In this document: in pieces, positions 9,272-49,706 of the stretch
How the letters are laid out: each line of letters opens with the position of its first letter
Position numbering within the stretch: position 1 is the first letter of the stretch
Notes under the pieces: generated by a model
Database searches by the model: none
Told to the model about the DNA's origin: nothing
Seen by the model: the letters and a program-made list of their open reading frames with translations, nothing else
Made by a program: the position numbers and the translations under genes
Source of the DNA: Escherichia phage EC_OE_11
Direction: 5' to 3' (one strand)
Sequence record: OQ108497.1
DNA length: 64,000 nt

Positions 9272-9272
9272 A

Positions 9273-35585: not shown

Positions 35586-35790
35586 CAAAATTATTTAAAG
35601 TTTTTACAGATTTTTGGATACAAATTTTGAAAATGAAAAGTTCAAGTTTGGTCAAAATTATTTAAAGTTTTTGTACGTATTTCTATCCAGATTTTGAAAA
35701 TGAAAACTTCAATTTTTTAAAAATTCCCCAGTTTATTTAAAGTTTTTTTGCCTTTTTCCGTAGAAAAATCAAAAATGAAAAGTTCAATTT
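35586..35790. repeat. 3 tandem copies of about 67-bp AT-rich unit
   Basis: Each unit has AAAATTATTTAAAGTTTTT and ATTTTGAAAATGAAAAGTTCAA. Confidence 0.7.
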
Positions 35791-35811
35791 CGTGTTTTTA
35801 TAGGTGTGCGT

Positions 35812-35925
35812 ATGATAATCATTCTCATTTGTAAATGAGAATCATTATCATTTAATTATGTAAGTGATAATCATTCTCAGTAAGAGAATGAGAATCATTA
35901 GCAAATGAGAATTTTTCTCATTTAG
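35812..35925. promoter_or_regulatory. cluster of Fur-box-like motifs (GATAATCATTCTCATT / AATGAGAATCATTATC)
   Basis: At least 5 units in both orientations resembling Fur consensus GATAATGATAATCATTATC. Confidence 0.5.
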
Positions 35926-35929
35926 AGAA

Positions 35930-36480: not shown

Positions 36481-36714
36481 TTGGCGCGGTAGAAAGATAA
36501 TAGCCGTTTCCTTTATAGATAGCAAGCAAAAAGAAATGAAAAAAAGATTAAAAAATGGTTGACGTTCCTCACCTGGTAGCGTAGTATTCATCTTGTCGAG
36601 GGGGGCAAGGCACAACGACAATAAACAATAGGCGGGTGCAATGCAGGACGGGCAAAGGTGAGGATCTCCACAATCCACCGTCACAATAACATTACTTATA
36701 AAAGGTTGATAACG

Positions 36715-36810
36715 ATGATCAAGAAAGAAAACAGCTTGACGGTTGGAACGATTAACGCTATCATTCTAGCCGTTCCATTTTGGATTGTAGTAGCGGTTGT
36801 TATTTTCTAA
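36715..36810 (+). CDS. small membrane peptide (31 aa), speculative
   Basis: ATG 36715; single hydrophobic helix; weak SD. Confidence 0.25.
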   Translation: MIKKENSLTVGTINAIILAVPFWIVVAVVIF

Positions 36811-36819
36811 AAAATATTC

Positions 36820-36878
36820 TTGACAACGTTTTTTAATCTGATAAGATGTATCACATAGGGCGGCAATAGTGCCGCTCA
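36820..36878 (+). promoter_or_regulatory. promoter + 5'-leader stem-loop cassette (PeSL-like, type B)
   Basis: TTGACA-16nt-TAAGAT then GCGGC-aatagt-GCCGC hairpin, SD, ATG 36900. Confidence 0.55.
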
Positions 36879-36899
36879 TAACAGAAGAGAGAAATAATC

Positions 36900-37172
36900 A
36901 TGGCATCATATAGCGCATCAATGATCGTAACGGGCATGACTGGTAAACCTATGCGCGGTGGCGGATCTTTCGCTAACATCAATATTGATGGGCGTTTATC
37001 CCTGGATGCAGCGATCACCGTGGCACGGGAAACATTTAAAAAAGAATGTAATTTCAATAAACAAGATTATCTCGGCTTCGTTATTGAAAAAACCGCGCGC
37101 TTTGTTGATTATAAAAGCCCGAAAATGATCGACACTACACTAAAAGCGCAAGATGTAGCATTTTTGCTTTAA
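36900..37172 (+). CDS. hypothetical protein
   Basis: 90 aa. Confidence 0.55.
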   Translation: MASYSASMIVTGMTGKPMRGGGSFANINIDGRLSLDAAITVARETFKKECNFNKQDYLGFVIEKTARFVDYKSPKMIDTTLKAQDVAFLL

Positions 37173-37175
37173 GGC

Positions 37176-37235
37176 TTGACACTGAAAAATAATTTAGTAA
37201 TATATACCACATAGGGCGGGAAATGGTTTCCCGCC
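37176..37235 (+). promoter_or_regulatory. promoter + stem-loop cassette (type A: GGGCGGGaaatggtttCCCGCC)
   Basis: TTGACA-16nt-TAATAT then 22-nt hairpin. Confidence 0.6.
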
Positions 37236-37257
37236 AAATCAAAGAAAGGGTAACACA

Positions 37258-37620
37258 ATGAGCAAGCAAATCAATACTATCATGTTAAACCTGGTATCTT
37301 TCCGCGATGACGTGAAAAATCTTTCGCGTGATGCAGTGGATGCACGGATCGAAAGCTATCGCACACAGATCGCGACATTACCGTTAAAACGTGATCAACA
37401 TGCCGCTAATATGATGCTTGATGCTATGATTAAAAAGATGATTCAATGTGATCTTACCCTGGCTTATGAATATGCTGGCGATCTTTTTGTAACGTATAAT
37501 AAACCCGTTCCAGGTATGAGCACCACGGAAGAATTGCATGCCTTAAATCTGCGACAAGATGCATGGGATAACATGCGCCGTGTTATGGTATGGGTAGAAA
37601 GCGGTAAAATTTACGAATAA
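37258..37620 (+). CDS. hypothetical protein
   Basis: 120 aa. Confidence 0.55.
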   Translation: MSKQINTIMLNLVSFRDDVKNLSRDAVDARIESYRTQIATLPLKRDQHAANMMLDAMIKKMIQCDLTLAYEYAGDLFVTYNKPVPGMSTTEELHALNLRQDAWDNMRRVMVWVESGKIYE

Positions 37621-37626
37621 AAACGG

Positions 37627-37680
37627 TTGACATTGCACGAAAACCTGATAAGCTATCTTAAAGCGGGAATTGTTCCCGCT
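37627..37680 (+). promoter_or_regulatory. promoter + stem-loop cassette (variant AGCGGGaattgttCCCGCT)
   Basis: TTGACA-16nt-TAAGCT then hairpin. Confidence 0.55.
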
Positions 37681-37698
37681 TACATAGGATAAAACTTT

Positions 37699-37845
37699 AT
37701 GAAACAATATGTAATGAGTATCCACACCAAAAACGGCGCTACTGTTACGACTCCGGCACGGTTTGCACTTGTAAACCGTTGCAAGAGACTAAAACGAGAG
37801 TTAAAAAATAACCGTGCAACGGGCTTTAAACGCTGGGGAGGATAA
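37699..37845 (+). CDS. small basic protein (48 aa), not in ORF track
   Basis: ATG 37699 downstream of cassette. Confidence 0.45.
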   Translation: MKQYVMSIHTKNGATVTTPARFALVNRCKRLKRELKNNRATGFKRWGG

Positions 37846-37847
37846 TC

Positions 37848-38108
37848 TTGTTTTTTCTAAAAGTTTGTGATAATGTGATCGCTTTTGAACATGCTACAAC
37901 GTTCGACCTGGCGAGATACGCTATCAGGTTTAAAGATAATGTTTATCCCCGTGCTGGCGGCGGTTACACTATTTTTAATCACCGTAACGCTCAATTAACG
38001 GATATAACTAATCCAGATCCTGGAGTGTATCGCATAGGCTGGCTACCGTCAAAAGACGCTGCAAGCATGTTTAAGGTGTGCAAACTACTAACAGAAGAGG
38101 CGAACTAA
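37848..38108 (+). CDS. hypothetical protein (TTG start as in ORF track; GTG at 37875 alternative)
   Basis: GGAGG SD 7 nt upstream of TTG. Confidence 0.45.
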   Translation: MFFLKVCDNVIAFEHATTFDLARYAIRFKDNVYPRAGGGYTIFNHRNAQLTDITNPDPGVYRIGWLPSKDAASMFKVCKLLTEEAN

Positions 38109-38109
38109 C

Positions 38110-38664
38110 ATGGGGCGTGAATATGTGATCCAGTCCTGGGTAAAGCATGATGCTAATGATCCGCGCATAATACCAGATGACATGATCGATCACATGGTAG
38201 GGTATAGCGGGGAGCAGATAGGAAATCGAGCGGCAAAGAGCAACGGCAACACCAGGACGCGATCCGTTCGCCCTGGATGGCTGGCGAATGGTAACGCTGA
38301 CATTGCAAGCGCCGCAGATCCAAGCGATGACGCTAAAAATAATCCCTTATACAGCATTGATCCGGCTTTTAAGGTGTTAGAAGAGTATCCCGCTAAATTA
38401 GCCGCACTAGATAAGGCATACGAAGAAAAGCGCATGGCATGGACTGTATACAACACCGCTAAAATGGTGCTAGATGCAAAATTGATTAAAGCCCAGGAGA
38501 AGATCAATAAACTTGTTACCATAGCGCAAGAGGAAGACCAGGACTACCAGGAGGAAGCGGAAGAAATCATGCCTACTCTGGAAGAGGAAGAGATCCAGCC
38601 ATACATGCCGACGGAAGAGGAAAAAAGACAAGCCCTAAAAAATTATGAAAATTGCATTGTGTAA
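38110..38664 (+). CDS. hypothetical protein with acidic C-terminal tail
   Basis: 184 aa, coupled. Confidence 0.55.
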   Translation: MGREYVIQSWVKHDANDPRIIPDDMIDHMVGYSGEQIGNRAAKSNGNTRTRSVRPGWLANGNADIASAADPSDDAKNNPLYSIDPAFKVLEEYPAKLAALDKAYEEKRMAWTVYNTAKMVLDAKLIKAQEKINKLVTIAQEEDQDYQEEAEEIMPTLEEEEIQPYMPTEEEKRQALKNYENCIV

Positions 38665-38667
38665 GGC

Positions 38668-38724
38668 TTGACATAGGCAAACAAGCCCCGTAATATGTAC
38701 CACATAAAGCGGGGCAACGCCCCA
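38668..38724 (+). promoter_or_regulatory. promoter + stem-loop cassette (variant)
   Basis: TTGACA-17nt-TAATAT then GGGGC-aac-GCCCC hairpin. Confidence 0.5.
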
Positions 38725-38745
38725 TAAGGTGAAATAAAAAATCAC

Positions 38746-38773
38746 TTGACACCTGAAATCAGTAAGCTATAAT
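38746..38773 (+). promoter_or_regulatory. sigma70-like promoter (no stem-loop)
   Basis: TTGACA-16nt-TATAAT. Confidence 0.55.
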
Positions 38774-38810
38774 GCTTATATAGATTGAAACATTACTAAG
38801 GAATAAAAGC

Positions 38811-38990
38811 ATGGCTATTATTGCAAAGACTGAGATCGTAGGTTTAGATTCTATCATCCTGGCATATGAGGAAGCTATAGAAATGTATGTGGTTTCCTAT
38901 GGTGATTATATCCGTGAATATAAATCTATTGATCTAGCTTTTGAATGCTATATTCGCCAGGTCAATAAAGCATATGATGATTATCGTTAA
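38811..38990 (+). CDS. small hypothetical protein (59 aa), not in ORF track
   Basis: ATG 38811 downstream of tandem promoters. Confidence 0.45.
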   Translation: MAIIAKTEIVGLDSIILAYEEAIEMYVVSYGDYIREYKSIDLAFECYIRQVNKAYDDYR

Positions 38991-39009
38991 AAGTTTTAGT
39001 CTTGTGCTA

Positions 39010-39038
39010 TTGACAACGAACGATAGTACAAGCATAAT
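39010..39038 (+). promoter_or_regulatory. sigma70-like promoter
   Basis: TTGACA-17nt-CATAAT. Confidence 0.5.
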
Positions 39039-39085
39039 AACTTTTATCGGGAATACTCCTAACTAATCAAAAGAGATTAAAGACT

Positions 39086-39451
39086 ATGGCTAAAAATATC
39101 AATGTTTCTGCTTATGCTACCCTGGCTAACACTGCTAAAATTGAACTATCCAGCATTGAAGCGGTACATATTAGCGCCCGTCGCTGGTTTCAAAAGTCTT
39201 ATGGTAATACTTATTTCTCTTTGATGGTTGACGTTGAGATCGGCGGTAAACTGATCGAAGTAGTTAACGTTCCGTTTCAATATGGTTATGGGGATCATTT
39301 TGATACCGTTGCCCTAGAAGAGTTTAGCAAGGTTATCAACCTGGAAGGTAAAGACTTTTCAAATTATGCTTACCTTTCCCGCTTTTGCCGTGATAATGGG
39401 ATCGCTGTATACAGTCATGCAAGCGATGTAAAACGTAAAAAAGATTTATAA
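39086..39451 (+). CDS. hypothetical protein
   Basis: 121 aa. Confidence 0.55.
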   Translation: MAKNINVSAYATLANTAKIELSSIEAVHISARRWFQKSYGNTYFSLMVDVEIGGKLIEVVNVPFQYGYGDHFDTVALEEFSKVINLEGKDFSNYAYLSRFCRDNGIAVYSHASDVKRKKDL

Positions 39452-39457
39452 AAAGCA

Positions 39458-39517
39458 TTGACAGCACGAATAAAAAGCATATAATACTTATATCGAGAGC
39501 GGGAATAGTTCCCGCCT
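39458..39517 (+). promoter_or_regulatory. promoter + stem-loop cassette (variant AGCGGGaatagttCCCGCC)
   Basis: TTGACA-16nt-TATAAT then hairpin. Confidence 0.6.
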
Positions 39518-39539
39518 CACTGAAAAAGAGATTAACATC

Positions 39540-39779
39540 ATGGCTAAATCTAAAATGTACAACGGTCACAAAAATAAAACTCATTGGAATGTAAGCCTTT
39601 GGATTAATAATGATGAATCGTTATACTTATACGCTGTAGGTTTAATAAATGAGTGCGGCAATAAAGATAAAGCGGCGGATCTGATGTGCTACAGATTAAA
39701 ACAGGATGGAATCACTCATACACCTGATGGTTTCAAGTATAGTAAAACTGCAATCCGTGCCGCTATGGTAGGAATGTAA
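39540..39779 (+). CDS. hypothetical protein
   Basis: 79 aa. Confidence 0.55.
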   Translation: MAKSKMYNGHKNKTHWNVSLWINNDESLYLYAVGLINECGNKDKAADLMCYRLKQDGITHTPDGFKYSKTAIRAAMVGM

Positions 39780-39788
39780 TAAAAGCAG

Positions 39789-39848
39789 TTGACAACGTTT
39801 TTTAATCTGGTATAGTTTATCGCATAGGGCGGGAAATGGTTTCCCGCC
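39789..39848 (+). promoter_or_regulatory. promoter + stem-loop cassette (type A)
   Basis: TTGACA-16nt-TATAGT then GGGCGGGaaatggtttCCCGCC. Confidence 0.6.
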
Positions 39849-39870
39849 AAATCAAAGAAAGGTTATCATT

Positions 39871-40098
39871 ATGGCTATCGTTATTGTTCGCGTATCCGGC
39901 ACGGTTGGAATCTCCCAGGTAGTAGCAGTTATCACCGAGAAGAAAGGGGATGATCTTCACTCCTCATTGAATAGCTGGGCGGTCGCTAACTTTGGGCAAT
40001 GGTCGAGCGTTGAGTACATCGAATCCTACCAGGTGCCAACGATTAGCCTGACCGATCTCAACGTTGATCGTCTGTTATGCCTGGATCAATTAAACTAA
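39871..40098 (+). CDS. hypothetical protein
   Basis: 75 aa. Confidence 0.55.
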   Translation: MAIVIVRVSGTVGISQVVAVITEKKGDDLHSSLNSWAVANFGQWSSVEYIESYQVPTISLTDLNVDRLLCLDQLN

Positions 40099-40106
40099 AA
40101 ATAATA

Positions 40107-40164
40107 TTGACAAGACAACTAAAATTAGTAAAATGTAATTCATAGGGCGGCAATAGTGCCGCCC
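40107..40164 (+). promoter_or_regulatory. promoter + stem-loop cassette (type B)
   Basis: TTGACA-16nt-TAAAAT then GGGCGGC-aatagt-GCCGCCC. Confidence 0.6.
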
Positions 40165-40185
40165 CTAGTAAGAGAGATTATCAAA

Positions 40186-40401
40186 ATGGCTAATATCCGC
40201 ACCTTGTTAAAAAATGCAAAGCAAGTTTTATTTTCAGATGACGAGTATTTCAACAAAGACATTACAGGCGTGAAAAATTTAAAAGACGTGAAGGATGTTA
40301 TCGGTATCCGTGGATCTTTACGTAAAGGTGACATATACGGTAACAAGGTGCAATATAAACTGTCAAAAGATTATGATTTTACTTTGACAATTATTTCATA
40401 A
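40186..40401 (+). CDS. hypothetical protein (71 aa)
   Basis: Start moved to ATG 40186 (MANIRTLL). Confidence 0.5.
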   Translation: MANIRTLLKNAKQVLFSDDEYFNKDITGVKNLKDVKDVIGIRGSLRKGDIYGNKVQYKLSKDYDFTLTIIS

Positions 40402-40407
40402 AACTAC

Positions 40408-40470
40408 TTGTAAACCTGGTAAAATAAAGTAAACTATATTCATCAAGGCGGTGGAATAGCCCACCGCCTA
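40408..40470 (+). promoter_or_regulatory. promoter-like + stem-loop cassette (variant GGCGGTGGaatagCCCACCGCC)
   Basis: TTGTAA -35-like, long hairpin, then SD and ATG 40493. Confidence 0.45.
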
Positions 40471-40492
40471 ACAAAGAGAAGAGGAAAATATC

Positions 40493-40663
40493 ATGATCAC
40501 TTTCGCTACCCGTGAAGCCGCTCGCAACGTTGCACGTAAAGTTAACGCCGCAAACCTGGGCGCTACGCTTAAAGCCCCGGTGAAAGATGAATCAGGAAAA
40601 TGGATCTTTCCTGGTCTGCGTCACGCTGATAAGCTGGGAACATTAACGTTAAAAAATAAATAA
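40493..40663 (+). CDS. small hypothetical protein (56 aa), not in ORF track
   Basis: ATG 40493 with GAGGAAAA SD-like. Confidence 0.45.
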   Translation: MITFATREAARNVARKVNAANLGATLKAPVKDESGKWIFPGLRHADKLGTLTLKNK

Positions 40664-40670
40664 TATCCGC

Positions 40671-40729
40671 TTGACAGTAGCATCATTTATAAGTAAAGTA
40701 ACAACAACGGCGGGAAATGGTTTCCCGCC
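40671..40729 (+). promoter_or_regulatory. promoter + stem-loop cassette (type A)
   Basis: TTGACA, -10-like, GGCGGGaaatggtttCCCGCC. Confidence 0.55.
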
Positions 40730-40749
40730 ATCAATAAAGAGATAAGATT

Positions 40750-41109
40750 ATGAAATCAGTAAAAGCAATTAAAACTTACATTGTGTCGGCTATTTCTTTT
40801 GATGGTACTACAACCGAAAAAGAAAAAATCACCGAACTGATGCGCCGTTTTAACTCTGAATACTGGTATCAATCTAATCGTGATCGTTATAATAACAATA
40901 TGGTACAAGCTGTTAAAAGCTGGTTGCAAGGTTTACCGTCAGATATCAATATCGCTTTTAATTATAACGAGATCGATCAATTATTAATTGAATGGAAGTA
41001 CATAAAAGAAACAAGCAAAGAAACAACCGTTACCCGTGAGCGGGAAAATTATTGGTTATATATTGCAAGCATGATCGTAACTTTGGCAAAATATCATAAC
41101 GTAGCGTAA
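40750..41109 (+). CDS. hypothetical protein
   Basis: 119 aa. Confidence 0.55.
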   Translation: MKSVKAIKTYIVSAISFDGTTTEKEKITELMRRFNSEYWYQSNRDRYNNNMVQAVKSWLQGLPSDINIAFNYNEIDQLLIEWKYIKETSKETTVTRERENYWLYIASMIVTLAKYHNVA

Positions 41110-41123
41110 TCGAGAGGAAAAAC

Positions 41124-41261
41124 ATGAACGCATCACAGCAGATCGAAAAATTCAACCGCAACAAAGCGCGTAAAGATTGGAACGAAGAGATCACCAAGAA
41201 AGGCGACAAGCGGAACAAAACAAAGAGAGATCGCAGCAGCAAAAGATACTGGAACGAATAA
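41124..41261 (+). CDS. small basic protein (45 aa), not in ORF track
   Basis: ATG 41124 with GAGAGG SD; K/R-rich. Confidence 0.4.
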   Translation: MNASQQIEKFNRNKARKDWNEEITKKGDKRNKTKRDRSSKRYWNE

Positions 41262-41263
41262 CA

Positions 41264-41290
41264 AAAAAGGGCGCAATAAGCGCCCTTTTA
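41264..41290 (+). terminator. intrinsic terminator
   Basis: GGGCGC-aataa-GCGCCC + TTTT. Confidence 0.75.
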
Positions 41291-41379
41291 GCTTATATAG
41301 GGGCTTGTTAGTTATAGGCAATGGTAACGCCAGGATAAGCCTATAAACCACGTTAGACAGCTTTACAGGAGCTTTAAAA

Positions 41380-41562
41380 ATGAAATTAGACGAAATAAGC
41401 AAGGCACTAGCCCAGGGGCAAAGGTTATGCGCCCGATATCGTGATCAATATGGCTTTATAACTAGCGGCGTGATCCTGGGGATTGAAGACAATAAAATTT
41501 TTATTGACACGTGGAAAAACGTTGTATATAGTGACAATATAATCTCAATAAAACATATATGA
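41380..41562 (+). CDS. hypothetical protein
   Basis: 60 aa. Confidence 0.5.
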   Translation: MKLDEISKALAQGQRLCARYRDQYGFITSGVILGIEDNKIFIDTWKNVVYSDNIISIKHI

Positions 41563-41570
41563 GGCAAGAA

Positions 41571-41972
41571 ATGAAAAAATTATTGATCGCTGGTTTACTC
41601 TCTTTTGGTATGGTTGGAACATCTAGCGCGGCGATATCCTCCACAGTAGCAGAATTAAGCGCCGTTGATGCAATGGAAAACGTCATGATCATTAATAATG
41701 CGATCCCCGATGAAATCATGGAGGATTCACACATGATCGCTTATGGTGCTATTACACAACTGACGGCAAAAATAGATAAATCTATTGTTAATGGCTTAAA
41801 TGAAGATGTACCATGCGAAATTATTACCAGTGTGCTCACTACTCAAAATTTTACGCCGTGGTTAAAAAGTATTCAAAAAGTACACAGTACAGCCGCAGAT
41901 CGTAGCAATGAAAAACTAGTGTCAGCACTTGCAACGTATACCCTAGCAAAATGTACTGAAATAAAAGATTGA
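41571..41972 (+). CDS. secreted protein (signal peptide)
   Basis: MKKLLIAGLLSFGMVGTSSA signal; start at 41571 with GAGG SD (ORF-track start 41559 also possible). Confidence 0.5.
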   Translation: MKKLLIAGLLSFGMVGTSSAAISSTVAELSAVDAMENVMIINNAIPDEIMEDSHMIAYGAITQLTAKIDKSIVNGLNEDVPCEIITSVLTTQNFTPWLKSIQKVHSTAADRSNEKLVSALATYTLAKCTEIKD

Positions 41973-42019
41973 CAACATAGAAAGCACGTTATAAGATACA
42001 CACAACAAAGGAGAACTAC

Positions 42020-42322
42020 ATGAACGGCATAGCTAAAACGTTTTTTCTTTTTTCTGGTGTAAATGATCCATCAATAAAAGTCGATAGCGTAAAAGAAAAC
42101 AATACTATCACCGCTAAATTATTTCAAGATGAAACAAATAACGTGCTAATCATTAATCTTAAAGAAATAACAAAAGGTTATTATACTATTGCTTACCATG
42201 CGATCTATAATGCTGATACTAGTGAGGAAGTGCAAACAAGCAACAACGAAAGCGCGGCGCTACCTGGTGATCTGGTGCTGGGCGTTATCAGTTTAATTGT
42301 CAATGATTTTTTTAAGGAGTAA
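42020..42322 (+). CDS. hypothetical protein
   Basis: 100 aa. Confidence 0.5.
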   Translation: MNGIAKTFFLFSGVNDPSIKVDSVKENNTITAKLFQDETNNVLIINLKEITKGYYTIAYHAIYNADTSEEVQTSNNESAALPGDLVLGVISLIVNDFFKE

Positions 42323-42326
42323 AACC

Positions 42327-42422
42327 ATGCCCTATTTACATTTATTTTTCGGTATCTTATTGACAGGATCTTTTTTCTTCTGTATGCTTGTTTCTATTGT
42401 AAACCACGTTTTAAGACATTAA
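42327..42422 (+). CDS. tiny membrane peptide (31 aa), speculative
   Basis: AAGGAG SD 7 nt upstream of ATG 42327. Confidence 0.35.
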   Translation: MPYLHLFFGILLTGSFFFCMLVSIVNHVLRH

Positions 42423-42431
42423 GGAAACAGC

Positions 42432-42551
42432 ATGAAAATTATTCCCGTACAGTATAGCGTAATAAATCCAGCATATGAGGAAGGAAGGAAAACAAGCATG
42501 GCTTTATGTTGTATTGCTACTATAACCATGTTGTTATACATTGTGTTTTAA
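42432..42551 (+). CDS. small membrane peptide (39 aa), speculative
   Basis: ATG 42432; hydrophobic C-terminus. Confidence 0.25.
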   Translation: MKIIPVQYSVINPAYEEGRKTSMALCCIATITMLLYIVF

Positions 42552-42580
42552 TAGGTTTTATAGTTGTACGCTTTAAAGGC

Positions 42581-42608
42581 TTGACAATTTTTTGTTATGC
42601 TTTAAAAT
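42581..42608 (+). promoter_or_regulatory. sigma70-like promoter
   Basis: TTGACA-16nt-TAAAAT. Confidence 0.5.
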
Positions 42609-42651
42609 ATATCTTGAAAACGGCAAAGGCCGCAAACAAAAGGGTAAAATT

Positions 42652-42975
42652 ATGAAATCTGTGATCGGTGTTTATTTGGATAACTCTGATTTTTTCTATC
42701 ATCGCGCTCGTTTCCTTGATGCGATTGAAATGATAGAATCAGGCTTTAAAGAGTATCGCCTTGCACATGATGACCTGGAAGCATTACAGGACAATAGTGT
42801 TTTTACATTGCAAGCTAAAGCACTATGCAAAAGCCGGATCGACATTGCAAGCAAAAAGATAGAACGCGGCATGTCCTGGTTGCGCACCGCAGAAATCAAC
42901 ATGGGGCAATGGTACGGCGAAAACTTAGAAAATAAACACACTTTTGTAAATGTAGAAAATATTAAAGATTATTGA
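42652..42975 (+). CDS. hypothetical protein (107 aa)
   Basis: Start moved to ATG 42652 downstream of promoter. Confidence 0.5.
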   Translation: MKSVIGVYLDNSDFFYHRARFLDAIEMIESGFKEYRLAHDDLEALQDNSVFTLQAKALCKSRIDIASKKIERGMSWLRTAEINMGQWYGENLENKHTFVNVENIKDY

Positions 42976-43037
42976 TTGACAGCACACCTGATAAGTAATA
43001 TATTGTATCTCATAGAGCGGGGAAATGGTTTCCCCGC
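42976..43037 (+). promoter_or_regulatory. promoter + stem-loop cassette (type A variant)
   Basis: TTGACA, TAATAT-like -10, AGCGGGGaaatggtttCCCCGCC. Confidence 0.55.
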
Positions 43038-43057
43038 CTTAACAGAAGAGATAAGAT

Positions 43058-43342
43058 ATGAAGATCACAAAAGCACTTTCCAACTATGCAGCACGTCGCG
43101 GCTTATGTTTAACCGTTGAAAACCTGGGGAAAGAAGATTTTTTGTGCTTTTGGGAGCTTGAGAATGATAATGAGTGGATCTTCTCTTATTCTATCTGCGA
43201 AGATCAAAACGGTTGTTTATTAACCTGGCGCGGTAATATCTATTTACCGCAAGAAATCAAAGAGGAACTACCAGGCACGATCATGACTGAGAAACAGCTT
43301 AAGGAAGTGATCAATTTTGTAGGGCAAAACATTAAAAAATAA
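43058..43342 (+). CDS. hypothetical protein
   Basis: 94 aa. Confidence 0.55.
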   Translation: MKITKALSNYAARRGLCLTVENLGKEDFLCFWELENDNEWIFSYSICEDQNGCLLTWRGNIYLPQEIKEELPGTIMTEKQLKEVINFVGQNIKK

Positions 43343-43343
43343 T

Positions 43344-43404
43344 TTGACACTAGGCAAACAACGTAGTAAAGTTTATCACATAGGGCGGGAAATGGTTTCC
43401 CGCT
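43344..43404 (+). promoter_or_regulatory. promoter + stem-loop cassette (type A)
   Basis: TTGACA then GGGCGGGaaatggtttCCCGCT. Confidence 0.55.
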
Positions 43405-43426
43405 CACAGTAGAAGAGAAACAAATC

Positions 43427-43597
43427 ATGATCCCAACTATGTTTTATGTATCGCGCAAAGGTCACAATATTTTTTGGTCTGAAGATTTAAATGAAGCCAT
43501 GACGTTTGCCCGTGATCGTGTTGCTATTGGTGGCGTTAATATCACTGTAACCGATGAAAATGGCATTGAATACTATAACGGCGACGATGAAGAGTAA
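43427..43597 (+). CDS. small hypothetical protein (56 aa), not in ORF track
   Basis: ATG 43427 downstream of cassette. Confidence 0.45.
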   Translation: MIPTMFYVSRKGHNIFWSEDLNEAMTFARDRVAIGGVNITVTDENGIEYYNGDDEE

Positions 43598-43604
43598 TTA
43601 ATGA

Positions 43605-43630
43605 GGCGGGGGGAGTATTCCCCGCCGTCA
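43605..43630 (+). promoter_or_regulatory. orphan GC stem-loop without obvious promoter
   Basis: GGCGGGGGG-agtatt-CCCCGCC between coupled genes. Confidence 0.4.
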
Positions 43631-43645
43631 ATAAAGAGATAAATC

Positions 43646-43915
43646 ATGAAAATATCATTAGACGTTGCAATCAAGGCCATCGAATCCGGTTACATCCTGG
43701 TAAAAGATGATAAGGCTAAAACCGTGCACCACGTTAACAAGGAAACAGGCGAAAGCATGATCACATATAAAGCCGCCTACTTTCTCCAATCAGTAGCAGA
43801 TCCGCGCGTACAACGCCAGGTTACAGCGGCTATTGCTAAAAAATTATGTGCTTTACAGGGCACAAGTTTTAACGAGATCGCCCCGTGTTTTGACTGGTCG
43901 AGCTTGAAAAAATAG
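43646..43915 (+). CDS. hypothetical protein
   Basis: 89 aa. Confidence 0.55.
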   Translation: MKISLDVAIKAIESGYILVKDDKAKTVHHVNKETGESMITYKAAYFLQSVADPRVQRQVTAAIAKKLCALQGTSFNEIAPCFDWSSLKK

Positions 43916-43916
43916 T

Positions 43917-43972
43917 TTGACAACAATTATAAATCGGGTAGAATGTATTTCGTAGGGCGGCAATAGTGCCGC
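43917..43972 (+). promoter_or_regulatory. promoter + stem-loop cassette (type B)
   Basis: TTGACA-16nt-TAGAAT then GGGCGGCaatagtGCCGC. Confidence 0.6.
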
Positions 43973-43995
43973 TCACAACTAAAAGAGAAATCATC

Positions 43996-44190
43996 ATGGC
44001 GCTTAAAAAATTAACAAGCAATACTCGTTGGGATGAAATCGACGGGGAAGTATACATTTTCGCCCGTAAACCAGGTGATCAAAAATGGTCAAAGGCTTTT
44101 ACTTGCCACCCTGCAACAATAGATCTAATAAAAAGTAAAGGTTTACGTGAAGCAGTAGCAAGGAGCTTACTGATCCCTTATAAAAAATAG
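43996..44190 (+). CDS. hypothetical protein (64 aa)
   Basis: Start moved to ATG 43996. Confidence 0.5.
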   Translation: MALKKLTSNTRWDEIDGEVYIFARKPGDQKWSKAFTCHPATIDLIKSKGLREAVARSLLIPYKK

Positions 44191-44191
44191 T

Positions 44192-44250
44192 TTGACAATA
44201 CGCGGTTATCTGGTAAAGTGTACGACATAGGGCGGGGCAATAAGGCAACG
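44192..44250 (+). promoter_or_regulatory. promoter + imperfect stem-loop cassette
   Basis: TTGACA-16nt-TAAAGT then GGGCG...CGCCC. Confidence 0.5.
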
Positions 44251-44271
44251 CCCACTAATGAGGGTAAAATC

Positions 44272-44376
44272 ATGTTAGAGAAAATTTTCACGGTTGTAGT
44301 AGTGGGCCTGGCGTTATCGGTTGGAGTGATTGCAACTATGGCTAACATGATCCTATCTTCCCACGGTATTGGATAA
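44272..44376 (+). CDS. small membrane peptide (34 aa), not in ORF track
   Basis: ATG 44272; single TM helix. Confidence 0.4.
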   Translation: MLEKIFTVVVVGLALSVGVIATMANMILSSHGIG

Positions 44377-44386
44377 GGTGAATCAA

Positions 44387-44602
44387 ATGATCACGAATAA
44401 GACAGGTAAAACAGAATTTTTACGCGGCTTGCAAATAGGTAAACCTGAAATCTGGCATTGCACTAAAACACCACGTGACGAAATGAAAGATTTCACCGCT
44501 ACTTTACAACGTGTTAAAATATCTATCACACAGAAAAAAGCCTTGTTAGTAGTAGAAAACGAGATCCCGCAAACCATTATTATTGTTGAGCGTACAGCAT
44601 GA
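44387..44602 (+). CDS. hypothetical protein (71 aa)
   Basis: ATG 44387 with AAGGTG SD; ORF track used upstream TTG. Confidence 0.5.
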   Translation: MITNKTGKTEFLRGLQIGKPEIWHCTKTPRDEMKDFTATLQRVKISITQKKALLVVENEIPQTIIIVERTA

Positions 44603-44985
44603 AAACAGAAATCATTATTGAAATCATCAACGGTTATAAAGAAGCCTTTATTTTTGCTGAATCCGCCAGGGATCATGAAGGTAATTTTATTGATAACTTA
44701 GACGATTATGATTTTTCAGATCAAGCCCATCAGCGGATTATACGTGACGTGGCGGCGTTTTGTGATGCCAATGATGCCGCTATCTCTGAGGCAATGAGCG
44801 ACGGCGCAACAGCCAACCAGATCGGGAATGATTTACATTTTACCCGTAATAGTCACGGCGTAGGCTTTTGGGATCGCCCTGAAATATACACTACTAACAC
44901 CGCCAACCGCTTAACTAATGCAGCTAAATTGATGCCATCGGTGCATGCTTACATTGGTGAAGATAATTTGATTTATATTGAATAA
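44599..44985 (+). CDS. hypothetical protein
   Basis: 128 aa, ATGA coupling. Confidence 0.55.
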   Translation: MKTEIIIEIINGYKEAFIFAESARDHEGNFIDNLDDYDFSDQAHQRIIRDVAAFCDANDAAISEAMSDGATANQIGNDLHFTRNSHGVGFWDRPEIYTTNTANRLTNAAKLMPSVHAYIGEDNLIYIE

Positions 44986-44991
44986 AAAGTA

Positions 44992-45050
44992 TTGACACCG
45001 ATCCCCAATATGGTATGATTTACCACGTAGGCGGGAAATGGTTTCCCGCC
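44992..45050 (+). promoter_or_regulatory. promoter + stem-loop cassette (type A)
   Basis: TTGACA-16nt-TGGTATGAT (extended -10) then GGCGGGaaatggtttCCCGCC. Confidence 0.6.
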
Positions 45051-45073
45051 AGGTAATCAAAAAGGTAAATACT

Positions 45074-45463
45074 ATGCGCAACCTGGTTTCTGTTTCTAAC
45101 GTTGAAAAATTTCAATCCTTGCAGGGTATCGTTAACAACGTAGCGCCTTTTTTAGTCAATGGCTTGATTGCAAAGATGAAGAATAAACATCATGCGGCAT
45201 GGTCTGCTTACTGCTTTGATAATGATGAAAAAGCGGCTGAAATGATGTTAAATATGCTGTTAGATAGTGTAGAATCATCTTTACCGGAAAACATCGCAGA
45301 AGAGATCACCTATCGTTATAATATGGCGATCACTTACCAGGAAGTGGCGCAATTTAATATGATGGATGATGACGAACAACAGGATCAGGAAATTTTCTGG
45401 GAGTATGCAGATCGTCAATCAGCTTTTGATGAAAAATTAGCGATGTATTATAACGAATATTAA
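45074..45463 (+). CDS. hypothetical protein (129 aa)
   Basis: Start moved to ATG 45074. Confidence 0.5.
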   Translation: MRNLVSVSNVEKFQSLQGIVNNVAPFLVNGLIAKMKNKHHAAWSAYCFDNDEKAAEMMLNMLLDSVESSLPENIAEEITYRYNMAITYQEVAQFNMMDDDEQQDQEIFWEYADRQSAFDEKLAMYYNEY

Positions 45464-45472
45464 TACACGGTA

Positions 45473-45504
45473 AAAGAAAGGGGCGCACTAAGCGCCCTTT
45501 TTTG
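45473..45504 (+). terminator. intrinsic terminator
   Basis: GGGCGC-actaa-GCGCCC + TTTTTT. Confidence 0.8.
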
Positions 45505-45849
45505 TATTCTTTTTTTCACGATGGAAACAACACGTAAAGAATAGGCGTAAAGGTGGCGTAAAACCATCTAAAACCGACTGTAACCGCTTAAACAAGGTAG
45601 GAATGATTAATCACCTTACCAGGATGAAAAAGCTGTTAGAGAGCTATTCAGAGCGTTTAAAGCACATAGGAAATAATTTGCTTTTTATCTTGCCTTTTAT
45701 CCTGCTTTTGATTATTATTATGGAACGGGCGGCACCTGGGGACAGGGGAAGATAATCACCGGAAGATCCCGCTATATATTAATAGCTAATACCTATTAAA
45801 CAACAAAACATCAAAGGTATAAACTATCAAATCTTTACAATTCTACCTA

Positions 45850-45878
45850 TTGACACCGGATCACGCTTACACTATTAT
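45850..45878 (+). promoter_or_regulatory. sigma70-like promoter
   Basis: TTGACA-17nt-TATTAT. Confidence 0.55.
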
Positions 45879-45924
45879 TTATCACGTAGGGCAAATCATT
45901 TTAAACGGTAAACGAGGAATCACC

Positions 45925-46308
45925 ATGAGCAATATCATCAACCTGGCAGCGACTGTAAACGGTAAAGACTTTAACGGCGCTGTAGACCGTGATCCTATGT
46001 GGTGCTTGTCAGTGTTTAAAGGCGATCTGGTTGAAGTTAGAACAACCGAAGGTTATAGCGACGATTATAAATGCGAGATCCATTTACATAACTGGTACAC
46101 GGGGAAAACTTATGCGCTGAATCACGCGTTTATCGGGAAAATTGAATATCGCGAGATGATCGACGAAGAAACGGGGCAAGATTTTAGCGATTATGTTTAT
46201 ATCCGTTCAGAAACATTAGCCGAACGTTTGATCGAGAAAATGAAAGCAAAAAATAAAATTAATTTATCTCATTGGATTGATATAACAAACGATCCTGCTT
46301 ATCAGTAA
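45925..46308 (+). CDS. hypothetical protein (127 aa)
   Basis: Start moved to ATG 45925. Confidence 0.5.
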   Translation: MSNIINLAATVNGKDFNGAVDRDPMWCLSVFKGDLVEVRTTEGYSDDYKCEIHLHNWYTGKTYALNHAFIGKIEYREMIDEETGQDFSDYVYIRSETLAERLIEKMKAKNKINLSHWIDITNDPAYQ

Positions 46309-46332
46309 ATAACATTTCATACCAGGGCGCAC

Positions 46333-46360
46333 AAAGCGCCCTTTCTTTTTACCTAAATAA
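46333..46360 (+). terminator. intrinsic terminator
   Basis: GGGCGC-acaaa-GCGCCC + TTTCTTTT. Confidence 0.75.
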
Positions 46361-46554
46361 AGATGATAGCTTTTACCTATCAAAAACGTTCACCGAAAAA
46401 AGTGAATAGATCGCGGTATCGAGCTAATCAAGGAGCAGATGAACAACCATACCATGAAGATCATAAGGCGCTTACAACGTGTTTTAGACCGCTTATTTTT
46501 AATTTCTCAATGTAACTATCGGGCAAAAACAGCCTTTTTCTTGTCTTTCCTCTT

Positions 46555-46572
46555 AAATGATAATCATTCTTA
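46555..46572. promoter_or_regulatory. Fur-box-like motif AAATGATAATCATTCTTA
   Basis: Matches GATAATGATAATCATTATC-type consensus. Confidence 0.45.
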
Positions 46573-46610
46573 TTTATAGCTGATTATTTATGCAATAAAC
46601 TGCATAATGC

Positions 46611-46630
46611 AATAATGATAATCATTCTTA
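46611..46630. promoter_or_regulatory. Fur-box-like motif AATAATGATAATCATTCTTA
   Basis: Second copy about 55 bp downstream. Confidence 0.45.
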
Positions 46631-46924
46631 ACTTATGACCATCTAACCTATAAAATAATAAGTTATCTAACTAAATTAAAGCTAACTATTTCACCTTTAT
46701 TTATAACTTACTGTTACTATCTCATTGATAACCTTATATTAAACAACAATAACTAATATAAATCATTACTAAGCTAAATATAATCTATCTAACCTTTAAA
46801 ACTATAACTATAATCTATCGAATTGTTGCACAAAGTAACTATTAAATTGTTAGTAACATTACTAAATAATTCACATCCTATCTATTTATGATCTAATCTT
46901 TACCTTCCTATCTATTACCTAAGT

Positions 46925-46956
46925 AATCATTTCATACAGCAATCATTTCATACAAC
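46925..46956. repeat. tandem direct repeat AATCATTTCATACA(G/A)C x2
   Basis: Two adjacent 16-bp units in ORF-free AT-rich region. Confidence 0.6.
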
Positions 46957-47019
46957 AACTATAACAAGAAATATAATTAGCAAGCGTATCATTAGCAGCC
47001 TATGCCGGACACATAGGCG

Positions 47020-47165
47020 GCTAATAATAACGCAACTACACACCCCACATAATAACCATCACCGATAGTTATTATCTGTGCTTATGTAGCTTGCAACAAT
47101 TGCAAGCGCAACAATATACATGGTATATTGTATCCCTTACATTGTTGCGGTGCGTTATTATTAGC
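47020..47165. repeat. large dyad-symmetry element: 14-bp inverted repeats flanking about 120 bp with internal hairpins
   Basis: GCTAATAATAACGC at 47020-47033 vs exact reverse complement at 47152-47165; internal CGCAACAAT...ATTGTTGCG hairpin. Confidence 0.6.
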
Positions 47166-47511
47166 TAATGTTTGGAACATTGGCTATAATATAAGCTACA
47201 TATAATAAGCTATTCAATAATAAACATCGTGAATAATGACATTGAAATGAATAATGACACTGATGATCATAATGCGCCACCTTCCAGGGGGCGCTATGTG
47301 AACACAAAGAAATCTTTCTTGTCAAGAAAAATATCACCATTATTGCGCAAAATTATTTATATCTGAATAGATGATTTTTCATACTATTGCCCCTATACAC
47401 TACCTCATTTGTTGCAATGTATCCCCCTATTTGTTGAGCCTATTCTCTTAAAAGCGCAATAAATCAGAATTATCTTGATTTTTAGTGGATTTTATAGTAT
47501 AGAAAATATGC

Positions 47512-47529
47512 AAATGATAATCATTATCA
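47512..47529. promoter_or_regulatory. Fur-box-like motif AAATGATAATCATTATCA
   Basis: Near-consensus Fur-box-like palindrome. Confidence 0.45.
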
Positions 47530-47694
47530 GCTATCTTCCACGGGTGGCACTATTTCACGCCAGATCATTTCATTTGGCAAGGTGTATATAGATGTTTAGA
47601 AATGCCAAGCCATTGATTTACTTAGAATTTATCTGTTTTGTTGTGAGTAGTGCCTTTCTTGCTCAGAAAATAATCAAAAGTCTTATAAGTCATT

Positions 47695-47730
47695 GAATGA
47701 TAATGCAAATGATAATAATTCTCATTGATA
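47695..47730. promoter_or_regulatory. tandem Fur-box-like motifs
   Basis: GAATGATAATGCAAATGATAATAATTCTCATTGA. Confidence 0.45.
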
Positions 47731-47846
47731 TTTGAGGGGGACGGTCGGCAGAAATCGGGGGGCGCTGAAAATCGCGTTAAGCACCTCTCGCAAGCGAGCA
47801 GTATTTTGCGGCAAGTTATTGATATTATTGGCTTTACGCTTATGGA

Positions 47847-47954
47847 AAGGGGGTGTGTCGAAATAAATCGGGTATACCGGAAAATTTTTGTGGCATAGAT
47901 ATTTATTTGTCTATATTATGTACAAAGGGGTGTGTTAAAAATATTAGGTATATA
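47847..47954 (+). repeat. two copies of about 30-bp direct repeat (AAAGGGGTGTGT..AAATA..GGTATA), possible promoter elements
   Basis: 47847-47876 and 47924-47954, about 75 bp apart, upstream of first gene of 48-60 kb cluster. Confidence 0.5.
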
Positions 47955-48085
47955 TAGAATAATTGATAGGGAAATCCTATACTAATTCCTCTATTAATGA
48001 TGCTTCTAGGTTGCTGTTCTTGTAATAGATGAAAAGACGCTATATGATGTGTGGCATGAAACGTAAATTTATAAAGGAGTCTGAT

Positions 48086-48445
48086 ATGTGTGTTCCTCTT
48101 AGCAGTCCACTGCTGTTAGAATTTTACAAAGCATGGATGGAAGATCATTCCTCAATGCATCGTGAGAATGTTGGTTTGTGTAATTGCCTTATGGATTACC
48201 TGGCAACCACTATGTCAAAGAAAAAACCTACGGAAGAAGATATAGAATATTTCAAGATGGTTCGTAGCAAAACGCTGGAAGAGATGAAACTGCAATTCAC
48301 GTGTGCTGGGCTATGCTCCTTCCTACCCTTTAATTATGATCTTCTGTGTTATGAAGATGAAGGTAAGACACATTCTTGCCATACCAACCCAAAGAGATTG
48401 CAGTGGGTGAAAGATCGTATTGCCGATTCATGCAAGGGTGTGTAG
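48086..48445 (+). CDS. paralog family member A (conserved-Cys family)
   Basis: ATG 48086 with AAAGGAG SD; shared LLEFYKAW, GLC.CL, FTCAGL, LPFN.D, RLQWVKDRI. Confidence 0.55.
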   Translation: MCVPLSSPLLLEFYKAWMEDHSSMHRENVGLCNCLMDYLATTMSKKKPTEEDIEYFKMVRSKTLEEMKLQFTCAGLCSFLPFNYDLLCYEDEGKTHSCHTNPKRLQWVKDRIADSCKGV

Positions 48446-48446
48446 A

Positions 48447-48602
48447 ATGTTGGAATTGATTGGGATAGTTTGGTTAATGATAAAAGCAGGTTTCGTCGGT
48501 TTCGGACTTCTTATAATTTTGTGTATGTTCCTTAGTGCAATACAGGCATTCTTTTATCTGCTAGGTAGAATACTTAAGTTGGGAGGTGATAATGAAAAGT
48601 AA
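48447..48602 (+). CDS. small membrane protein (51 aa)
   Basis: ATG 48447 right after upstream stop. Confidence 0.4.
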   Translation: MLELIGIVWLMIKAGFVGFGLLIILCMFLSAIQAFFYLLGRILKLGGDNEK

Positions 48603-48960
48603 TATTCCGTTGAGTAGTGCAGCTTTAATACGATTCTATAAAGCATGGATTGCCAACCATCCTGCAATGAATCGCACAACGAGTGGCTTATGTGGTTGTC
48701 TGGTAGATTATGTAGATGATTTTGTTGGGGAGATAACTAGAGAAGAAGATAAAAGATGGCGTGATCGTTTGTTGGATAGTTTGAAATACGAAATGAGGAA
48801 ACAATTTACATGTGCAGGACTGGACTACAATCTTCCGTTCAATGCAGATTGCATGGATTACCTTTCAGAGTGTATAGACTTGGCGTGTCATACCAACACG
48901 TTACGTCTTCAATGGGTGAAAGACAGAATCGAAGATGCAAATAATGCTTGCATTGAATAG
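48592..48960 (+). CDS. paralog family member B
   Basis: ATG 48592 with GGGAGGTG SD; same motif set. Confidence 0.55.
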   Translation: MKSNIPLSSAALIRFYKAWIANHPAMNRTTSGLCGCLVDYVDDFVGEITREEDKRWRDRLLDSLKYEMRKQFTCAGLDYNLPFNADCMDYLSECIDLACHTNTLRLQWVKDRIEDANNACIE

Positions 48961-49030
48961 AAATGTCTGTACACTGTGTTCCATAAGATATACAATATCG
49001 CGCATAACAAACTACTAATGAGAGGTGTAA

Positions 49031-49489
49031 ATGAAAACTGTATCTTTGTATCTTGCTAACACGGAGCGTGTACATAATCTTGTAAAAGAATGCGGTGTGA
49101 GTGTTCAATTTAACATAGGAAAGCCTTCCGTGGTGACAGGCAGTGAGATGTGTGTTATTGATTTCCTCAATGAGTATTTTCGTGGAAAACCTATTGCTCG
49201 TCACTTCATTCAAGAAATGCGAGATGTACTACAGGCTTATGAATTCTACCCAGAAATTTGTGAACGCTATGAAACGATTCTTAGTTCTGTAGAAGATCCA
49301 GATACTAGTGAAACAGGTGCTTCCCACTTGCTGTGGATGTTGAATGAAATTCAGGATGGGTGTAATGGTATGTCTGAAACCAAACGCCATCGCTGGCTAG
49401 GCTATATTCAGGGTGTTATGGTTATGAAAAACCTTATTACAGTGAATGATGAACGTAACGCTACCCGCCCAGTCTTTAATGGAGCATAA
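49031..49489 (+). CDS. hypothetical protein
   Basis: 152 aa. Confidence 0.55.
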   Translation: MKTVSLYLANTERVHNLVKECGVSVQFNIGKPSVVTGSEMCVIDFLNEYFRGKPIARHFIQEMRDVLQAYEFYPEICERYETILSSVEDPDTSETGASHLLWMLNEIQDGCNGMSETKRHRWLGYIQGVMVMKNLITVNDERNATRPVFNGA

Positions 49490-49490
49490 C

Positions 49491-49706
49491 ATGAAAAGCA
49501 TTAGGGTGTGTATCGAAAATAATTGTGGCTATCTGGGGTTGACACACGTTGCTTTCCCTCTTATATTGGATGCCGATATAGCTTACAGTGGAGTTGCTTA
49601 TGTGTCATTCAAGACAATGAGCCAAGTACCTGGCTGGAATTGGGAAGTGGTTGATGTTGTTGAAGGAGAAGACTATGTTTTCCTTCCACACGAATATACT
49701 GTTTAA
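49491..49706 (+). CDS. hypothetical protein (71 aa)
   Basis: ATG 49491 with GGAG SD. Confidence 0.5.
   Translation: MKSIRVCIENNCGYLGLTHVAFPLILDADIAYSGVAYVSFKTMSQVPGWNWEVVDVVEGEDYVFLPHEYTV

Follow-up and report, generated by a model that had tools for sequence, protein, structure and literature searches.

The 64,000-nt stretch of Escherichia phage EC_OE_11 studied here (record OQ108497.1; hereafter the window) contains a gap of about 1.7 kb, between positions 46309 and 48028. An initial annotation had described this gap as AT-rich, devoid of open reading frames (ORFs) and marked by nested dyad symmetry, and had proposed that it might be a replication origin, a packaging (pac) site or a genome-end junction. 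Our analysis confirms the observation and supports the interpretation in part: the gap can be assigned, with a probability of roughly 85%, to the genome ends (the concatemer junction) of a phi92-like myophage whose DNA is packaged with short exact direct terminal repeats (DTRs). Such a terminus is already known, as it is annotated in phi92 and was reported for BME3; the present phage is another case. The location of the ends tells annotators where the genome really starts, and the terminus explains a 1.7-kb "empty" stretch that is filled with spurious small ORFs in many records. For the packaging-based engineering of phi92-like phages, whose broad host range makes them therapeutically interesting, it also defines the cis region required.

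The proposal of a genome-end junction is borne out by related records that end inside the gap. The phi92 record (FR775895.2) stops within the query and annotates a left and a right direct terminal repeat at 1-343 and 148270-148612. These two 343-bp copies are identical to each other and map to window positions 47437-47779 with 97% identity over the 343 bp, so that the window sequence is the homologue of an established DTR, boundary motifs included. In the BME3 record (PP239276.1), the first 342 nt are exactly the last 342 nt, and the record ends map to window positions 47778 and 47437, in agreement with phi92 within 1 nt. The same sequence is therefore found at both ends in phi92 and in BME3. 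A 342-bp DTR was reported for BME3, with PhageTerm named as the packaging-analysis tool (PMC12210895), and Stephanstirmvirinae genomes are said to terminate in DTRs (PMC12695924). Moreover, the record of WPEC1, a phage that groups with the Phapecoctavirus relatives, terminates in ...AAAATTCGCGTT, at the same CGCGTT site. The comparison with related phage termini, which had been suggested as a check, thus places the ends of phi92, BME3 and WPEC1 in the gap, where these fixed ends coincide within 1 nt.

Both boundaries of the repeat are conserved. The DTR is present in the window as a single copy on the + strand (47437-47779; the 342-nt ends of BME3 correspond to 47437-47778). To its left, an array of (C)CTATTTGTTG(C) units (47395-47436, + strand) finishes exactly at the left genome end, reading ...CTATTTGTTG/AGCCTA, where the slash marks the end. 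This left boundary is invariant in ten Justusliebigvirus genomes, down to the last CTATTTGTTG unit and AGCCTA, and is largely kept in the other two clades examined; TGTTGAGCC is also retained in the Klebsiella-phage group. At the right end, the motif GAAAATCGCGTTA/AGCAC (47767-47784, + strand) matches the record ends of phi92, BME3 and WPEC1, is likewise invariant in the ten Justusliebigvirus genomes and is kept in most Phapecoctavirus and in the Klebsiella-phage relatives. By homology, the virion DNA would start at 47437 (AGCCTA...), run rightwards round the map and end at 47779 (...CGCGTTA). The packaged molecule would carry the 343 bp at each of its ends, and a replicating concatemer would have them once at every junction, hence the one copy seen in the window; unlike phi92 and BME3, this is a permuted record in which the two copies are collapsed into one. 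Homology and independent records show where the ends lie, while the roles given below to a dyad element, to the repeat array and to Fur boxes are inferred. The elements that had been flagged are not themselves the termini: a pair of 16-nt repeats and the dyad lie 270-510 nt to the left of the DTR, and the distance from its right end to the "30-bp repeats" is 65-175 nt.

A 1.8-kb query around the gap matched 79 phage records, 47 of which cover at least 80% of it. Identity is 90-98% for most of the matches, and those with annotation at the top of the list are classified in Justusliebigvirus (phi92-like myophages, Stephanstirmvirinae). Four of the records (MG065639, MG065645, MG065656 and MG065689) are named "Campylobacter phage", with Campylobacter jejuni as host, yet are 94% identical over the full region; probably, their host labels are wrong or the records are contaminants. 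On its left, the gap is bordered by a Gp30.8-like gene (stop at 46308), a homologue of phi92 gp248 that belongs to Pfam PF06019. On its right lies a small early gene to which no function is assigned, with its ATG at 48086 preceded by AAGGAG (the mechanical ORF opens at 48029). These flanks, the gp248 homologue on one side and small early genes on the other, are the same in phi92 and BME3.

Among ten Justusliebigvirus genomes, the gap is 94-99% identical, a conservation equal to or higher than that of the adjoining genes, and unlike those genes it was never swapped for a different allele in these close relatives. Only three spots vary, and these are also where the window differs from phi92 and BME3: the copy numbers of two tandem repeats and the number of CTATTTGTTG units before the left end. 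The first tandem repeat, a 16-mer (AATCATTTCATACAAC, 46925-46958, + strand), corresponds to the short AT-rich direct repeats noticed initially; two tandem copies are present here (2.1 copies, 94% matches), against one, two or three in relatives. The second, an 18-mer (TGAATAATGACAYTGAWR, 47230-47265, + strand), is single copy in eight of ten relatives. Five islands reach other genera at 68-85% identity: 46325-46670, the dyad, the two DTR boundaries with their adjacent boxes, and 47896-47988.

The absence of a credible ORF was also verified. On either strand of 46309-48028, ORFs encode at most 59 aa. Where a counterpart of a candidate above 30 aa could be detected in the Phapecoctavirus and Klebsiella-phage relatives, stops mostly break it up in some or all of these phages; the remaining candidates have short matches or none there, and both flanking genes are kept as proteins. 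We therefore consider the gap to be truly non-coding. The small ORFs of the gap (30-59 aa) were accordingly rejected: the longer ones, among them an ORF with a Shine-Dalgarno sequence at 46439, are broken by in-frame stops in at least some of the distant relatives, if not in all, and the others show only short matches or none. The stretch was left empty in the carefully annotated records of PATM, Paula, inny and outra; other records place up to 11 "hypothetical proteins" in it. No tRNA or tmRNA was found by scanning. Rfam returned no match at gathering score over the whole window and nothing credible at E values up to 1 over 46200-48200, where two chance-level matches (E 0.5-0.7) both fall outside the dyad element.

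How could the ends be produced? Recognition and duplication of DTR ends have been worked out only for T7-like phages, for which the work on a hairpin is reportedly that of Chung, Nardone and Hinkle in 1990. The T7 models described in PMC4281155 involve sequence-specific nicks and fill-in or displacement synthesis, and a DNA hairpin intermediate is reported there. By analogy with T7-type phages, a terminase would recognise the region and cut it sequence-specifically at the two conserved boundary motifs, and the repeat would be duplicated by fill-in or strand-displacement synthesis. The conserved non-coding DNA around the DTR may then be read as cis-acting: the CTATTTGTTG units abutting the left cut are a candidate terminase recognition array, of which a related copy lies within the dyad (47129-47147); the dyad, 270 nt to the left of the DTR, is a candidate DNA-level hairpin or cruciform for end processing or priming or, alternatively, an RNA; and four Fur boxes, two of them within the repeat, could be an iron-responsive operator or the sites of an architectural host factor, as is IHF at lambda cos. 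The T7 concatemer junction resembles this region in its short exact repeat, its fixed ends and the non-coding, dyad-bearing flank to the left of the repeat. It differs in several respects: the present phage is a 147-kb myophage whose junction lacks a phage RNA polymerase promoter and a CJ terminator, its repeat measures 343 bp as opposed to 160 bp in T7, and the dyad consists of four helices located 270 nt away and is no simple inverted repeat.

Several points weigh against this interpretation. The ends are deduced from relatives that are 93-98% identical and not from reads or virion DNA of the phage itself, and the phi92 DTR is taken as its record annotates it. In the BME3 record, the DTR feature is misplaced and there is an odd duplication close to the end: the annotated "DTR-L" (146957-147298) lies 73 nt off the true terminal duplication (147030-147371, equal to 1-342), a block similar to window 47003-47241 recurs just before it, and the record contains an N. 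In Klebsiella phage FKP3 (PP895363.1, record positions 1-817), a 317-bp exact direct repeat with a 500-bp period opens the record, about 11 nt inside the equivalent of the left DTR boundary. This hints that the repeat length or the right boundary may differ in that clade; either the DTR is about 500 bp there or the FKP3 repeat is an assembly artefact of a terminal repeat. The proposed mechanism of cutting and duplication is an analogy only, and nothing ties the dyad element or the Fur boxes to packaging. Finally, a sequence scan found no sigma-70 promoter matching at 10/12 positions or better between 45878 and 49539, and a role of the Fur boxes as operators is therefore left without an obvious promoter.

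The four Fur boxes are the less ordinary feature of this terminus. Box 1 (AAATGATAATCATTCTTATTT, 46555-46575) scores 25.9 bits with a matrix derived from phage sites, and its position is kept in three genera. Box 2 (TAATGATAATCATTCTTAACT, 46613-46633; 19.3 bits) matches 16 of the 19 positions of the consensus GATAATGATAATCATTATC. Within the DTR, box 3 (AAATGATAATCATTATCAGCT, 47512-47532; 25.2 bits) matches the E. coli consensus at 17/19 positions, and box 4 (AAATGATAATAATTCTCATTG, 47707-47727; 24.7 bits) lies 63 nt from the right end. A 13-mer core, AATGATAATCATT, is exact in the first three boxes (46556, 46614 and 47513) and has one mismatch in the fourth (47708). With at most one mismatch, this core occurs 12 times in the window as opposed to 0.38 expected, and all occurrences are in this gap or in another one at 35.8 kb. 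The 19-bp consensus gives five matches with up to three mismatches (0.03 expected). The four boxes match it at 14-17 positions: 17, 16 and 15 for three of them by scan, and about 14 by eye for box 1, which is not among the matches listed by that scan.

That these motifs are Fur boxes is further suggested by E. coli itself. A 21-bp matrix built from the nine phage sites alone was run on the enterobactin cluster of E. coli K-12 with its surroundings (26 kb) and on the 64-kb window. In E. coli, its top seven matches fall in the fepB-entC (24.3 bits), fepA-fes and fepD-entS intergenic regions, which are the three classical Fur-controlled divergent promoter regions, as an equivalent motif would; in the window, no other site reached 10 bits. 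The phage boxes and these operators share the same 19/21-bp palindromic motif, and AAATGATAATCATTAT, the entC operator, does not differ from the phage core. In contrast to the E. coli operators, the phage boxes are located in the terminal repeat and non-coding gaps of a virulent phage, without a recognisable iron-related gene or a clear promoter. The arrangement is conserved: in each of the three clades, one or two boxes are retained 370-520 nt left of the dyad centre, together with two in the DTR. Phapecoctavirus has an equivalent of box 3, the Klebsiella group a weaker one, and the distance from the last box to the right end is 62-66 nt in every clade, although the sequence of this box differs (AAATGATAATAATTCTCATTG, GAATGATAATTATTCTCATTC and GAATGAGAATGATTCGCATTG). 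A tblastn search of all phage records with E. coli Fur found no homologue in the related phages. Since these records encode no Fur homologue, a phage-encoded Fur is unlikely and host Fur is the likely ligand of the predicted boxes. In the literature searched, there was no relevant mention of Fur boxes from lytic phages, T5 or the termini of virulent phages, nor of Fur titration by phages, and Fur boxes at the ends of this phage appear to be unreported.

What the boxes do is a matter of hypotheses: they could serve as an operator, bind an architectural factor near the cut or titrate Fur. In phage lambda, a site for IHF, a host bending protein, lies in cosB at a fixed distance from the terminase nicking site. 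The likeness resides in a host-protein site at a conserved distance from the cut site (here 62-66 nt), but lambda has cohesive ends and IHF where the present phage has DTRs and Fur boxes, and a role of Fur in packaging would be speculation by analogy. A possible though doubtful alternative to the terminus as the main function of the gap is that it is mainly Fur-controlled, Fur-Fe2+ on the four boxes repressing transcripts that run from within or beside the repeat into the left-end genes, which would make early expression iron-responsive. Indeed, the boxes equal or surpass the ent/fep operators of E. coli; a 9/12 sigma-70-like site (TTAACT-17-TAAAAT, 46628-46656) overlaps box 2 with its -35-like hexamer; the left-end genes (48086-49500) lack a near-consensus constitutive promoter, unlike the right-arm genes; and a second cluster of five boxes (35810-35923) lies directly upstream of a block that is kept even in rV5-like phages. 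However, boxes 1, 3 and 4 have no convincing conserved sigma-70 promoter, only promoter-like sites with 9/12 matches, the fixed spacing relates to the genome end and not to a gene start, and Fur binding is a prediction. A small transcript running from box 4 across the right end was considered and rejected, its fold being weak and not conserved. Control by Fur is compatible with the region being a terminus.

The second conserved feature next to the genome end is the nested dyad (46985-47165), present in a single copy in the window. A 7-bp hairpin (46998-47018) is followed by an outer stem (47020-47034 paired with 47151-47165) that closes three arms: H2 (47036-47089, tip 47052-47072), H3 (47090-47106) and H4 (47107-47149), giving a cloverleaf-like element of four helices. 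The inverted repeat of the initial annotation is thus perfect and encloses internal hairpins as stated, three in number, its length being 15 bp and not 14. The folding check that had been proposed gave a clear result: compared with dinucleotide shuffles, 46975-47175 folds with z = -5.6 on the + strand and -7.65 on the - strand. We aligned 15 distinct sequences from three clades (genera), with 48 consensus pairs and 720 cells. Compensatory changes on both sides were found in 14 of the 48 pairs, as opposed to 0-3 in controls with slid partners; 98.5% of the cells are paired, as opposed to 21-47% with slid partners; and none of 500 shuffles reached the observed values. Pairing is therefore under selection. 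The outer stem, for example, occurs as CGC/GCG, GCC/GGC, CAC/GTG and CCG/CGG, and in the Klebsiella phages arm H2 pairs even though its sequence is unrelated. An alternative pairing of 47020-47034 with 46986-46998 was rejected: in other genera, only the invariant ATTAGC/GCTAAT is kept, without covariation, which designates the outer stem as the selected pairing. As ATTAGC/GCTAAT is over-represented, with five occurrences in the 350 nt around the dyad compared with 0.2 expected, the dyad may also be a protein-binding array. An exact-pattern search of IMG/VR for more homologues yielded four contigs only, so that the covariation rests on the three clades.

Does the dyad act as RNA or as DNA? It could be a structured non-coding RNA gene of about 180 nt, most likely on the minus strand, with the rest of the gap regulatory, but we regard this as rather unlikely. 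The strong covariation across three genera would fit such an RNA, and in all five representatives the minus strand has the more stable fold, by 16-21 kcal/mol, and the better z-score. Nine cells also hold C-A mismatches on the + strand, which are G-U pairs on the minus strand, as opposed to four U-G cells on the + strand. On the other hand, neither the scan nor the relatives revealed a conserved promoter or intrinsic terminator for the dyad on either strand: three relatives have lost the sole candidate promoter, TTGAAT-18-TATATT (47217-47188), through a 14-bp deletion. Wobble pairs make up only about 1% of the 720 cells on either strand, the rest being almost all Watson-Crick, which is low for an RNA and fits pairing at the DNA level or on both strands. 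Moreover, the covarying structure matches no Rfam family, even at E = 1. We therefore lean towards a DNA-level hairpin or four-way structure, or a structure needed on both strands. The element, conserved in three genera, appears to be unreported, and it offers a clean, mutable candidate for studies of the recognition or duplication of DTR ends in large myophages.

A replication origin, the first function proposed for the gap, is improbable. The gap would then hold an AT-rich unwinding core beside a hairpin element that loads a helicase or primase or serves for priming. A core of 23.4% GC is indeed present at 46540-46984, with short dispersed repeats, although the AT-richness of the flagged region as a whole is only moderate (32.1% GC compared with 37.4% for the window). 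An AT-rich core is necessary for an origin and not specific to it. The conserved structured element adjoins this core, and the non-coding DNA is strongly conserved. Nevertheless, the clustered initiator sites typical of an origin are absent: there are no DnaA boxes with up to one mismatch between 42683 and 53937 and no iterons in the gap, where the repeats are two-copy tandems of variable number. The neighbouring genes encode small proteins without assigned function and not replication proteins; the turns of the GC skew, at about 31 and 61 kb, correspond to switches of gene strand and not to the gap; and past 46670 the AT-rich core is genus-specific, whereas the other blocks are shared. A second gap, with 67-bp repeats, would be an equally good candidate. 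The origin proposal is thus unsupported.

There is a slimmer chance still that the region acts in DNA entry, in the manner of the T5 injection-stop, with host-protein sites (Fur in place of DnaA) and palindromes that would hold or pause the incoming end. In T5, the untranslated region of the terminal repeat ("Repeat Region 3") consists of nested repeats, palindromes and eight DnaA boxes (bioRxiv 10.1101/866236), and the equivalent region of the T5-like phage chee24 carries strong Fur boxes. The two systems have in common a non-coding region of nested repeats, palindromes and host-protein sites associated with a terminal repeat; they differ in that the T5 repeat is about 10 kb long, codes for genes and has DnaA boxes, and there is no sequence homology between them. 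Against a role in entry, two-step injection is not known for phi92-like phages, DnaA boxes are missing here and the T5 model is itself a hypothesis. In chee24 (NC_047885.1, positions 9151-9670, left terminal repeat), at least four Fur boxes of 22.6-30.3 bits with the phage-derived matrix lie beside DnaA boxes, in the untranslated "Repeat Region 3"/injection-stop region. Fur is not mentioned in the T5 paper that describes Repeat Region 3 (bioRxiv 10.1101/866236). More broadly, a synthetic double Fur box matched 883 phage records, mostly of enterobacterial phages.

A headful pac site of a circularly permuted genome, which the repeat-rich, non-coding look of the region might at most suggest, is excluded for practical purposes because the relatives have fixed ends: where permutation would give variable ends, exact identical repeats stand at fixed positions at both record ends, and BME3 was reported to have a DTR, with PhageTerm as the named tool (PMC12210895).

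Beyond the terminus itself, near-consensus Fur operators at conserved positions of the ends, in this phage group and likewise in the unrelated T5-like family, would, if Fur binds, link host iron status directly to the life cycle of a virulent phage. We tentatively propose, as a conjecture that we consider less likely than not, that large virulent enterobacterial phages (phi92-like, phAPEC8-like and related Klebsiella-phage groups and, independently, T5-like phages) put high-affinity sites for host Fur in and beside their terminal repeats. Fur might then be a host factor of the ends, for iron-responsive entry, early transcription or terminase cutting 62-66 nt away, or about 11 boxes per genome, multiplied by replication, might titrate Fur and derepress host iron uptake to the advantage of the phage; the covarying four-way DNA/RNA element would be a new cis signal for the processing of DTR ends. 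Both the Fur boxes and the four-helix element merit experiments.

The remaining features of the gap and its surroundings are more conventional. The terminator placed near 46333 by the initial annotation is real: an intrinsic terminator on the + strand (46324-46352), with a 7-bp stem (46324-46342) containing six GC pairs and followed by the T-run TTCTTTTT, closes the right-arm block of + strand genes and is also annotated in the PATM and Paula records. Between the DTR and the first gene, a leader (47780-48085, + strand) contains two repeats of about 30 nt (47845-47877 and 47922-47954) with the motif AAAGGGGTGTG...GGTATA. These are the two 30-bp direct repeats noted upstream of the next gene; they are present but imperfect, about 70% identical by eye with one gap, and 82% identical over a 17-nt core (47847-47863 and 47924-47940). 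Sigma-70-like sites in the leader reach 9/12 matches at best, and those of the whole gap are not in excess (14, compared with 11.4 in shuffles). About 22 near-consensus sigma-70 promoters, nearly all with a perfect TTGACA, are found among the small + strand genes of 36700-45900, which form the right end of the genome. The first genes past the left end have no obvious strong host promoter, none of that quality being present in 45878-49539. The first two of these genes (48086-48445 and 48586-48960) are paralogues, both assigned to phrog_2510. Relatives have one or two copies with differing alleles at this locus, which is a mosaic hot spot (33-66% identity at 48300-48700).

The second Fur-box cluster belongs to another AT-rich, ORF-free gap near 35.4 kb (35372-36070, 28% GC). 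A 67-bp direct repeat, with two full copies and a partial third (35586-35790), is followed there by five overlapping strong Fur boxes (35810-35923) and then by a GC-rich block. The box cluster is kept in phi92 (136990-137103), and the rV5-like phage CarlMeissner has, at two places, a Fur box with the same GGTGxTTGTCTC block after it. This gap is a candidate Fur-regulated small RNA or regulatory locus, or a candidate origin. Just upstream, a gene on the + strand (34820-35371) encodes a NADAR-domain protein (PF08719, E = 2e-36); NADAR proteins reverse ADP-ribosylation, and the gene may be an anti-defence gene. Downstream, within 36000-36700, an 88-aa ORF on the - strand (36183-36449) interrupts a + strand block in a local GC-rich island (44.7%, compared with 37%). 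It matches phrog_19316, to which no function is assigned, and is a homologue of phi92 gp224; its terminator hairpin is also the spacer of a sigma-70-like promoter with 11/12 matches (36180-36152).

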